64,000 bases of DNA from an uncultured Chloroflexia bacterium. GTDB lineage: Bacteria; Chloroflexota; Anaerolineae; CG2-30-64-16. Positions 29,579-31,937 of the stretch are shown in pieces (position 1 is the stretch's first letter; each line of letters begins with the position of its first letter). A program made the translations under genes and the position numbers. The stretch is from positions 224,001-288,000 of the forward strand of contig CAVZDU010000010.1 of the NCBI GenBank assembly GCA_963774265.1, written 5' to 3'. The notes beneath the pieces are model-generated. The model was not told the DNA's origin. It searched no databases and was given only the letters and a program-made list of their open reading frames with translations.

Positions 29579-31937
29579 TCAATCCCCCATTGGGGTTTTG
29601 CTCAGCGAGCCGGGGGAAGGCTTAGGATTACGTTTCTTCTTTGTGCTGACCGGCCGCTCACGCAGATCGTGTTGCATGCAGAAAGAGCGAATGACATCGA
29701 GGAATTGCTCTCCGTAATGTGCTAACTTGTGTTCTCCAACGCCGGTGACCGTCAGCAAGGCCTCAGGCGAGTGCGGACGGCGAGAGACCATCTCCGCCAA
29801 CGTCCGGTCGGAGAAGATCACAAACGGTGGGACGCTTGCTTCCTTAGCCAACGCAGAACGCACTTTGCGTAACTCTTCAAAAAGGAGGCGCTCAGCGCCC
29901 GAGTCATCCACATGCGGGGAATCAGCCTGTACAGGCAACGTCGGGAGGAGGATGCGTTCATCCACCCCCGGCCCTGCGGTCCGTGACCTTCGTGCCTGTC
30001 CACCGATGCGCTTGGAGCCGGTGATCCCTCCGCTCGATAGGCAGTTGTCGCACATGGTGCACTGTTTCGTCGATATCGCTTCACTGAAGTAGTTCAGGAG
30101 GGGGACGCGGCGGCAACCGGCTGTCCTTGCATAGCGCAGCATCGCTTGGAGGCGCTCCTCTTTCCTGACGCGTTCATCCTTGGGGCCTTTGTTGATGAAG
30201 TGACGGACCTTCACGACATCCTGCATGCCCCATAGGAGAAGGCAGTCCAGCGCGAAGCCCGTCGCGGCCCGCGCGGCCGATCTCCTGGTAGTAGCTTTCC
30301 AGGTTCTTCGGCAGTGCTGCGTGCAAAATGAAGCGAACATTGGATTTGTCGATGCCCATGCCGAAGGCGATGGTTGCGACAATAATGGGTGTCTCATCGC
30401 GTGAGAAACGCCGTTGGTGCTCGCGGCGGGTGGCGTCGTCCATTCCGGCGTGATAGGGCACCGCCTGCAATCCCTCATGAGTCAATTGTTCGGTCAGGCT
30501 GTCGACGTCGTGACGTGTCTGGCAGTAGATGATGCCGGACTGGTCTTTGTGAAGGTCAAGAAACGTGAGGATCTGACTAATTCCCTGGACGCGAGGGCGC
30601 GTCTCGAGGAACAGGTTCGGCCGATTGAAGCTGGCAATAAAACGATTGGAATCCCCAAAGCCGAGGATCTTCGTGATGTCCTCTTGCACACGCTTCGTCG
30701 CGGTGGCAGTCAGCGCCAGGCACACTGCATCCGGATAGCGCTGTCGGACCGGCAGTAGATTGCGATACTCTGGGCGGAAATCATGTCCCCACGATGAGAT
30801 GCAGTGGGCCTCGTCAATGGTGATGCAGGCCACGTGCGCTTGATCGAGCATCACGAGGGTCTCGGGACGCAGAAGAGTCTCGGGCGCCATGTAGACTAGT
30901 TTGATTGCACCTCGTCGGATGGTGTCCTTTGTATTGACATAAGCATGGTAACTCATTGTGCAATTCAGGAAGGCAGCCGGAACCCCCAGCTCATGTAGCG
31001 AATCCACCTGATCTTGCATCAATGAGATGAGGGGTGATATCACGACTGTGACGCCGTCGAAGAGAAGCGCGGGCAATTGATAACACATCGACTTGCCGCC
31101 GCCGGTAGGCATGATTGCAAGCGTGTCGCGCCGCGACAGCACGTTCGCAACCACCTCGCCCTGGAGCGGTAGGAAGTCATCGTAGCCGAACACGGACTTG
31201 AGCAGGCCCCGAGCGCTACCGAACAAGGGACTTGGCCCTGATGCCCCGGAAGCCGGGACATCATCGCCGGGGATTTGCGGGTGTGGGGTCTCACGAGGAT
31301 GGGGGGGCGCCTCGTCACCCTCGAACCATCCGCTCAGCTGCAGATAGCAGCGCAGCTCCATGTCGTCTTTGTCCTCTGGACGCCACCAGTGGGCCAGGGA
31401 AACACGCACCAACGTCCCTGCAGGGATTACCTCAATCGGCTCCTGAAAGCCCACGAAGGCAAGCGTGCGTCCGCCGTCCGCAGTGAAATAGCGATAGCGG
31501 ATGCGCTTGCCCTCTTCATCTCGAACCAGGTCACGGTCCGGGCGCCAGAACAGGGTGCTGCGTGAGGGGACCCCGGACTGCTCGGCGACATACATGGCGC
31601 CTCCAGGGCTGACCTGGATTAACCCATCGTACAGCAAATCCGGTCCTCCGATGGCGGGCGGCATGACTTTCTCGATGAACCTTGTCACCCGATCTGTGGA
31701 GGCCTCCCGGAGACGGTGTTTCTGCTGCACGACGACGTTCTCGATGTGTGGCGGCTTCAGGTCCGCAGGTGGATCGCCTTCGATCTCCCACACATCGCCG
31801 ATCTGATAATCGAGGTTGAAGTGCTCGTTGCCGTCCATATCCTGGGCGATAAGACGAACGCTCTGCCCATCATCGGAAATGGCGCCAATACACGCGCCGC
31901 CCCCCATGTGCGTCTTTGCGACGACGACGACTTTCAT
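29579..31937 (-). CDS. recQ: RecQ-family helicase with N-terminal dual-OB-like domain, Zn domain and HRDC (frameshifted near 30250)
   Basis: MPTGGGKSMCYQLP, SPLISLMQDQV, IDEAHCISSWGHDFRPEY, ATIAFGMGIDK, YYQEIGRAGRDG, CRR...CTMCDNC and HRDC LFEELRKVR...PPFVIFSDRTL, with about 210 extra N-terminal residues. Confidence 0.92.

Follow-up and report, generated by a model that had tools for sequence, protein, structure and literature searches.

A RecQ-family helicase with an N-terminal DuOB domain and no winged helix, encoded beside a DUF488 gene pair in an uncultured Chloroflexota bacterium

Gene layout and domain architecture

We analyzed 64,000 nucleotides (nt) of the genome of an uncultured Chloroflexia bacterium (assembly GCA_963774265.1, contig CAVZDU010000010.1, positions 224,001 to 288,000), called the window below, and followed up a minus-strand gene for a RecQ-family helicase that begins with a DuOB (dual OB) domain. 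All coordinates are those of the window. The gene is read from two overlapping minus-strand open reading frames (ORFs), 30174..31937 (587 aa) and 29579..30478 (299 aa), joined across an extra base at 30248..30249 that breaks the frame and is a probable assembly error. The start at 31937 is right, because the N-terminus (MKVVVVAKT...) agrees with the N-termini of intact relatives. As detailed below, the gene is a member of a common, already catalogued architecture.

Domains were called with Pfam profiles, and the RQC winged helix (PF09382) was additionally sought at a relaxed threshold (E ≤ 10). The DuOB domain (PF22557) occupies 31326..31937 on the minus strand (residues 1–204, E 3.5e-21, profile positions 1–210 of 210), with a score of 76.6 bits against a gathering cut-off of 27; the same genome's own scan gave 80 bits. 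It is followed by a Pro-rich linker delimited from the translation (31203..31325, minus strand, about residues 205–245), which is unconserved and varies in length among relatives (alignment A1, columns about 220–360). The RecQ motor, with its two RecA-like domains, covers 30249..31202 on the same strand (about residues 246–563; DEAD 257–418, Helicase_C 456–560) and is 79% identical to the relative P0002 over 563 residues without a gap. The first ORF passes the NCBIfam model recQ_fam TIGR00614 (424.6 bits against a cut-off of 219.8), which, with the DEAD and Helicase_C matches, confirms the intact RecQ core that an initial annotation of the sequence had described behind an N-terminal domain of about 207 aa and a Pro-rich linker.

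The remaining domains lie beyond the frame break, also on the minus strand. The RecQ zinc-binding subdomain (PF16124, 30038..30223, E 3.7e-17, residues 9–70 of the piece starting at 30247) keeps the four Zn-ligand Cys residues that are invariant in alignment A1. The HRDC domain (PF00570, 29690..29884, E 3.7e-22) spans residues 122–186 of this C-terminal piece. Between the end of the zinc subdomain at residue 70 and the start of HRDC at residue 122, 51 low-complexity residues (29885..30037) stand in the place of the winged helix, close to the 50 or so that had been estimated. A short basic tail and the stop codon complete the gene (29579..29689), with a five-base run at 29584–29588 that is possibly one base too long. 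The C-terminal HTH_40 domain of many relatives is absent from the protein, and a tblastn alignment with P0002 ends at P0002 residue 781, before its HTH_40.

Against the canonical RecQ equivalog TIGR01389 (cut-off 640.2 bits), the two pieces reach 469.7 and 124.1 bits and stay below; so does the intact P0002, which likewise lacks a winged helix (603.4 bits), while the winged-helix-bearing relative P0020 passes (722.9 bits). Identity with DpdF, the helicase of the Dpd DNA-modification system, was considered and rejected, as the score is 181.9 bits against an NCBIfam DpdF equivalog cut-off of 550; strong PADLOC 'DpdF' matches (465 bits) span only the generic RecQ motor and HRDC.

Fold and distribution of the DuOB domain

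An AlphaFold2 model of residues 1–206, built from an 80-row alignment, was obtained with high confidence (pLDDT 95.5, pTM 0.90). Beta strands make up most of it, along with a few short helices. The best Foldseek matches in the PDB were the DNA-binding HIN-200 tandem OB domains (8i6k_A, E 7.1e-5, query TM 0.39), followed lower down by Teb1-AB and the Deinococcus single-stranded DNA-binding protein (SSB). VIA-align, run against 48,161 chains, listed neighbours whose Z never exceeds 4.9; most are OB-fold proteins that bind nucleic acids, including AspRS, RPA, SSB, PriB, CST, BRCA2, MCM-N and RecG. Two of the matches extend over both barrels, p204 HINab with 145 aligned residues and Ustilago maydis RPA70 on single-stranded DNA with 156. 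The Pfam assignment, the model and both structural searches thus agree with the dual-OB-like character that had been proposed for the N-terminal domain by pattern recognition, and support a model of DuOB as two OB-type beta barrels. Nucleic-acid binding by DuOB is predicted from this modelled fold only.

Nine DuOB residues are invariant (T9, R28, P63, E66, W131, R178, S180, C197 and Q200) and three are nearly so (C16, H64 and D67). A sequence search of the PDB returned no solved relative of either DuOB or DUF488.

An exhaustive phmmer search with DuOB against 1.84 billion representatives, clustered at 50% identity, gave 751 clusters at E ≤ 1e-3. Among the best 150 matches, 102 were proteins of 185–260 aa, in which the domain makes up the whole protein, 27 had 261–699 aa, 13 had 700 aa or more and corresponded to RecQ fusions, and 8 were shorter than 185 aa. 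DuOB therefore occurs chiefly by itself, as a protein of about 200 aa, since two thirds of these best matches (the 102) fall in that length range.

The fusion itself is nevertheless abundant. A word-index search with ORF A returned at least 8000 matches, and the best 120 rows, which were inspected, all combine DuOB with a RecQ motor. RQC is also present in 110 of the 119 non-self rows, most of which carry a C-terminal HTH_40 as well, and the usual length is 950–1000 aa. Where the source gives a name, it is 'ATP-dependent DNA helicase RecQ' or simply 'DNA helicase RecQ', with Chloroflexota, Anaerolineae or Promineifilum added in three NCBI names. A pattern scan that took one genome for each species gave 513 encoding stretches, of which the best 80 were taken as genome loci; these come from Chloroflexota (Anaerolineae, Ardenticatenaceae, Promineifilum and Caldilineales), Verrucomicrobiota, Poribacteria, Planctomycetota, Terriglobia and Latescibacterota. 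With the domain in Pfam and its fusions this widespread, the architecture is already common, an outcome that the initial annotation had named as one that would count against its proposal. No experimental characterisation of the DuOB-RecQ architecture, or of the cassette described below, was found in the literature searched for DuOB, PF22557 and DUF488 with RecQ.

DuOB as the third gene of a cassette with two DUF488 genes

Upstream of recQ, on the same strand, lie two DUF488 genes. The distal one, first gene of the cluster, encodes 197 aa (32469..33062, minus strand, Pfam DUF488 E 2.1e-21). The proximal one is an ORF of 182 aa (31991..32539, minus strand, E 2e-15), in which translation probably starts from Met22 (32476), overlapping the end of the distal gene; it also matches DUF488-N3a at E 8.3e-5, under the cut-off of that model. 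The cluster is tight and co-directional, with recQ beginning 53 nt past the proximal DUF488 gene.

The two DUF488 genes form distinct orthologous groups, with median identities to the window copies of 55% (distal) and 52% (proximal). Each protein has an invariant Cys...Cys-His-Arg set: C122, S123, E124, C130, H131 and R132 are among the invariant residues of the distal protein (32 orthologues), and C152, V153, E154, C160, H161 and R162 are those of the proximal one (34 orthologues). The AlphaFold2 model of the distal protein (pLDDT 84.9) had no strong Foldseek match, the best being a DUF442 putative phosphatase (E 3.9e-3). With VIA-align, it was closest to the N-domains of the tetrapyrrole methylases CbiL (Z 9.4) and CbiF (Z 9.1), followed by the Cys-based phosphatases KAP (Z 8.9), laforin (Z 8.3) and an archaeal protein tyrosine phosphatase (Z 7.9), and by baculovirus RNA 5′-phosphatase (Z 7.0). 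The modelled distal protein would thus resemble the Rossmannoid folds of both Cys-phosphatases and tetrapyrrole methylases. Burroughs and Aravind reportedly placed DUF488 in the rhodanese-phosphatase superfamily in 2023 and predicted a role in DNA-end processing in conflict systems, and the phosphatase-like fold agrees with that placement. The Pfam names used here reportedly come from Burroughs et al. 2019 and Burroughs and Aravind 2023.

The linkage of these genes was then compared across loci. Of the genome loci, 72 have 1150 nt or more of sequence upstream of DuOB, and all 72 carry both DUF488 genes there on the same strand, adjacent to DuOB in 70; in the other two (L063 and L095) an insert leaves the pair about 1 kb further upstream. 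A RecQ core followed DuOB in all 73 genome loci with enough downstream sequence. Metagenome loci, seeded with stand-alone DuOB proteins, gave the other form of the arrangement: both DUF488 genes lay upstream of DuOB in 59 of 62, and a RecQ core lay downstream in 0 of 44. DuOB from these stand-alone cassettes is 35–50% identical to that of the window. Around 15 stand-alone cassettes no fourth conserved partner was found, and the flanking genes vary. These comparisons of gene order show a highly conserved DUF488-DUF488-DuOB cassette, free-standing or fused to RecQ, in at least six phyla, and they run counter to the idea that the module was acquired for RecQ, as had been assumed when it was first noticed. 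A complex prediction of both DUF488 proteins with DuOB (score 0.00, mark 0.32) was neutral on binding.

Some further features were seen around DuOB genes. Upstream of three stand-alone cassettes, SpoVR-like genes contain an intein with a LAGLIDADG homing endonuclease (L112:818-3520, L145:944-3628 and L176:1059-3731). Just downstream of two others, a WYL regulator and a reverse transcriptase give a defence-island-like setting (L152:5748-8319 and L173:5700-8231). In one genus of the phylum, DuOB genes occur in tandem pairs in several genomes (G201, G225, G249, G289 and G329).

Recurrent loss of the winged helix

RQC had no match in the protein of the window even at E ≤ 10. In alignment A1, about 95 winged-helix columns are gapped in the window and in P0002–P0005, P0008 and P0010; these six relatives are intact proteins that keep the zinc subdomain and HRDC and likewise have no RQC. 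The linkers that take the place of the winged helix are short, and they are dissimilar between the two groups of proteins without it. As these relatives stem from separate assemblies (ENA, JGI, Logan and NCBI), the loss is inherited and not the product of a collapsed assembly segment, and the missing winged helix of the initial annotation is borne out.

Domains were counted over the 67 related genome loci that were fully readable, with enough downstream sequence. The zinc subdomain is present in 66 (absent in L067), the winged helix in 62 (absent in L024, L059, L067, L080 and L099), HRDC in 60 (absent in L034, L043, L057, L067, L075, L091 and L099) and HTH_40 in 55 (absent in 12, of which 8 are from Poribacteria).

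The state of the winged helix was mapped on a FastTree phylogeny of DuOB plus motor with 133 rows. It changes five times on the tree, and at least four of these changes are forced by well-supported branches. The window clusters with P0002–P0005 (support 100). The other nearby pair without a winged helix, P0008 and P0010, is sister to a clade that has one, so that winged-helix-bearing sequences keep the two groups apart. P0008 is the protein of a genome of the same genus as the window (G006), and another genome of that genus (G001, locus L025) retains the winged helix.

Judging from these sequences, the loss of the winged helix is real and inherited, and is a recurrent secondary deletion that took place once DuOB was in place. 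DuOB came first and the winged helix was lost later, because the two coexist in 110 of the 119 matches and 62 of the 67 loci. The same counts speak against the proposal that an OB module replaced the winged helix, and DuOB evidently did not evolve as such a replacement. Since the winged helix was lost repeatedly within the DuOB-RecQ family, DuOB may nonetheless cover part of its DNA-holding role.

Two other variants of this region were observed. In X1, a soil metagenome run that was the sole public run found with part of the stretch (7% of sampled words), position 29943 is followed in one contig, after 4 other letters, by 30038, so that 94 nt of the linker between the zinc subdomain and HRDC are missing, which suggests a relative with an even shorter linker. 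The DuOB-RecQ relative P0043 lacks RQC and carries HEAT-type repeat families (PF02985, PF03130, PF13513 and PF13646) instead.

The frame break and the quality of the assembly

Using tblastn with the intact relatives P0002 and P0006, the protein was followed in frame −3 down to 30249 and in frame −1 from 30247. The window reads ...CGC GCT G GAC TGC... at this point, where relatives have ...GRDGLRA-DCLLLW..., which places the indel suspected near 30250 as one base too many at 30248/30249. Programmed frameshifting was rejected, as the site has no slippery context and the extra base is missing from relatives.

X1 offers an independent view of these positions. A 151-nt contig over 30178–30329 has 5 mismatches and one base fewer at 30249. 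Other X1 contigs have one base fewer at 29086, where the frame of the downstream gene changes (see below), and at 29589, in or next to the five-base run 29584–29588 beside the recQ stop codon; the latter difference would alter only the last few residues of RecQ. X1 provided no usable coverage of 31200–31330, and of the two frame switches in the downstream gene it bears on the one at 29086.

Although its 5.5 Mb lie in only 10 contigs, the genome scores as 84% complete. In a Pfam scan for broken genes among 50 long ORFs from the remaining window, many housekeeping genes were found split or truncated (window 3703–7561, 22980–24192 and 59408–63335). The pantoate hydroxymethyltransferase gene (panB) covers profile positions 59–190 of 259 and continues in frame into positions 1–47 of ApbA (panE), the remainder of which is carried by the next ORF. 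Pantothenate kinase (coaX) matches 77–205 of 205, Thiolase_N 1–221 of 260, an aconitase-type protein 9–211 of 463 and an isopropylmalate-dehydrogenase-type Iso_dh 165–348 of 348.

The break at 30248/30249 is most likely an assembly error, because the X1 contigs lack the extra base, housekeeping genes are broken in the same way and a 10-contig genome is only 84% complete. We regard this case as strong but not final, and no pseudogene annotation is warranted. One-base indels appear frequent in this assembly, and 'pseudogenes' in the genome are therefore not to be trusted.

RecQ and SSB complement and neighbouring genes

In the genome as a whole, RecQ_Zn_bind and DuOB have a single match each. 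A tblastn search with the full DuOB-RecQ P0020 returned only the window locus and a match on contig C8, which was discarded as a second RecQ because it is a DEAD-box helicase beside a UDG gene. No second canonical recQ, of the kind that the initial annotation had proposed to look for, was thus detected by RecQ_Zn_bind or tblastn in the 84%-complete genome, and by these sequence searches the gene is the only RecQ detected. The related genome G007 has a single RecQ_Zn_bind match and carries a short RecQ-like paralogue of 554 aa (L021, G007:C13, 1403-3064), with a winged helix-turn-helix inserted before the zinc subdomain. This type of paralogue was not found in the genome of the window, which is incomplete.

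The winged helix of E. coli RecQ holds the pocket for the C-terminal tail of SSB. The genome encodes two SSBs, both with acidic C-terminal tails; the winged helix that forms an E. coli-type pocket is absent here, and other modes of contact are possible. A single-molecule study reports that E. coli RecQ without its winged helix is still stimulated by SSB (PMC6144805), so an enzyme that has lost this domain need not be SSB-independent.

Directly downstream of recQ lies a Memo-like gene (28350..29575, minus strand, Pfam Memo) that is read in three frames, with switches at ~29086–29090 and ~29372–29385 as located by tblastn with the intact orthologue from G006. If the run 29584–29588 is one base too long, the recQ stop would overlap the Memo start (ATGA), which would suggest translational coupling. 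Memo was rejected as a member of the cassette: of the 80 genome loci, just two (L024 and L025) contain it, and among the loci checked for it the recQ-Memo adjacency is limited to close relatives of the window. Elsewhere, the window contains three tandem paralogues of M42 glutamyl aminopeptidase (39548–42875) and two large TgpA-like transglutaminase genes (37146–39497 and 46148–49901), the second of which follows a DUF58 gene.

Interpretation and alternative explanations

We propose, with a probability of about 70%, that the gene encodes a functional RecQ-family helicase in which the third gene of the cassette has been fused to the 5′ end of recQ with the DUF488 pair kept upstream, in which the winged helix and HTH_40 have been trimmed, and whose frame break is an assembly indel. 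The third gene (DuOB) of a self-contained DUF488, DUF488, DuOB cassette would have been joined to the 5′ end of recQ, and a sub-lineage would then have deleted the winged helix, leaving an unconserved linker of ~50 aa in its place, and lost HTH_40. In the resulting protein, the RecQ motor would translocate 3′–5′ and open DNA, and the flexibly tethered tandem-OB DuOB would keep the enzyme attached to a DNA strand, end or junction. The substrate of the two DUF488 enzymes would be a phosphate or a sugar group at the end of the nucleic acid so exposed, a step suggested by the Cys-phosphatase-like fold together with the invariant Cys...Cys-His-Arg set. In our reading, RecQ would be the motor of a DUF488-linked DNA-processing module.

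Several points weigh against this proposal. What bears on it directly is domain content and synteny, and all the mechanistic steps are conjectural. The cassette is patchy: DuOB was found in 9 of 31 relatives, including the genome itself, and in 42 of 301 genomes of the phylum sampled at ≥90% completeness, a tally that includes one unpublished genome (G292). Such patchiness is more in keeping with an accessory or mobile system than with core repair. As the genome is incomplete, a second RecQ could be missing from the assembly; G001, G006 and G012 each have two RecQ_Zn_bind matches, one of them outside the DuOB-RecQ locus, which may be the same short paralogue as in G007. The structural neighbours of DuOB score weakly (TM about 0.39; Z at most 4.9) and indicate the type of fold, not the ligand, and its invariant residues would resemble a small active or metal site as much as a face that binds single-stranded DNA. 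Finally, each indel is backed in X1 by just one contig of low depth, which belongs to a relative with 93–97% identity and does not consist of the organism's own reads.

Alternatively, DUF488-DUF488-DuOB(-RecQ) could be an anti-phage or other conflict system and not a genome-maintenance module, with RecQ as the motor of a defence complex, a possibility that we take seriously even though we think it unlikely. The distal DUF488 protein matches the PADLOC candidate PDC-M45B (E 1.2e-48) and the proximal one PDC-M45C (E 2.9e-11) and also PDC-M19A, and stand-alone cassettes (including L114 and L117) give the same matches. However, these PADLOC models are candidates only, DuOB has no PADLOC match, and no protein here matches PDC-M45A. 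The patchy distribution given above (9/31 and 42/301) would suit such a system, as would the similarity of DuOB between phyla, Verrucomicrobiota and Poribacteria copies being 56–61% identical to that of the window when most Chloroflexota loci are similar at about 57–67%. Some stand-alone cassettes are flanked by an integrase, Mob and a primase or by WYL and a reverse transcriptase, others by a DNA methylase, an HNH nuclease or a PIN-helicase; still others lie in ordinary surroundings, such as SpoVR or peptidases, and the flanks in the window are ordinary housekeeping genes. Burroughs and Aravind are also said to have predicted, in 2023, that a DUF488 clade takes part in DNA-end processing in conflict systems. 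On the other side, the fused helicase is the only RecQ detected in the genome, and winged-helix-bearing members pass the RecQ equivalog (P0020, 722.9 against 640.2).

A more speculative form of our proposal, which we hold tentatively and would rate as improbable, is that DuOB is the substrate-recognition subunit of a widespread DUF488, DUF488, DuOB DNA-end-processing or defence module that captured the sole RecQ in several phyla. Once fused, DuOB would have assumed what the winged helix did before, holding the duplex or docking partners, hence the deletion of that domain at least four separate times.

The model of the initial annotation, in which a built-in double OB module for binding single-stranded DNA took the place of the winged helix that recruits SSB, giving an SSB-independent specialised RecQ, appears highly doubtful. 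Part of it stands: DuOB is a tandem OB-like module whose structural neighbours include RPA, SSB and HIN domains, the winged helix is truly missing from the RecQ of the window, and at least four losses within DuOB-RecQ would be easier to understand if DuOB can cover for it. The replacement and the acquisition for RecQ are not supported, since most members keep both domains (62/67 loci, 110/119 matches) and DuOB is primarily a protein of stand-alone cassettes with no RecQ nearby. Independence from SSB fits poorly with a genome that retains two SSBs with acidic C-terminal tails and with the reported SSB stimulation of E. coli RecQ without its winged helix (PMC6144805); nor is the enzyme a specialised second copy, being the only RecQ detected here. 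A weaker form of the idea can be kept, namely that DuOB may make the winged helix dispensable.

Least probable of all is a decaying pseudogene, with a real frameshift and the loss of the winged helix and HTH_40 as erosion of the recQ-Memo cluster: three frame breaks do fall within 1.2 kb (recQ 30248/30249; Memo ~29086–29090 and ~29372–29385), a further one-base difference lies at 29589 beside the recQ stop codon and the sole run found, X1, has 7% of sampled words and is not made of the organism's own reads, but the frame is otherwise open with 79% identity to P0002 without gaps over 563 residues, the signatures of the motor, zinc subdomain and HRDC are all kept, intact relatives share the form without a winged helix, the extra bases do not occur in contigs of a close relative, and essential-looking genes of the window are broken likewise, pointing to assembly error.

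The gene of the window is itself of little import, and the wider pattern of the cassette is more useful. The recurrent loss of the winged helix in fused forms amounts to a natural experiment on which RecQ accessory domains are dispensable when another DNA-binding module is attached. The cassette, presumably predicted already, is an attractive target for experiments.

Comparison with known systems

Like canonical bacterial RecQ of the E. coli type, the protein of the window has a superfamily 2 motor, a four-Cys zinc subdomain and an HRDC domain. Unlike it, it has an N-terminal DuOB and a Pro-rich linker, no winged helix and a DUF488 pair encoded upstream.

It can also be compared with the winged-helix-bearing DuOB-RecQ proteins of Chloroflexota and other phyla, such as P0020 ('DNA helicase RecQ [Chloroflexota bacterium]'), to which it is about 60% identical and with which it shares the order DuOB, linker, motor, zinc subdomain and HRDC as well as the upstream DUF488 pair. 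Those proteins are 950–1000 aa long with RQC and a C-terminal HTH_40, whereas the protein of the window has neither domain. The stand-alone cassettes have the same gene order and an orthologous DUF488 pair; however, no helicase is fused or adjacent in them, while the DuOB of the window is the N-terminus of RecQ.

For the DuOB domain itself, the HIN-200 proteins (AIM2, IFI16 and p202) and the DBD-A/B domains of RPA70 are the best structural matches over both barrels. They differ from it in sequence (5–16% identity) and in the orientation of the barrels, with TM about 0.39 and Z 4.9 or less, and DNA binding by DuOB is suggested by the fold.

Finally, eukaryotic BLM/Sgs1 with RMI1/2 and RPA likewise combines a RecQ motor with OB-fold modules. 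In that system, the OB partners are separate proteins unrelated to DuOB, the winged helix is kept and there are no DUF488 enzymes, in contrast to the single polypeptide and upstream DUF488 pair described here.

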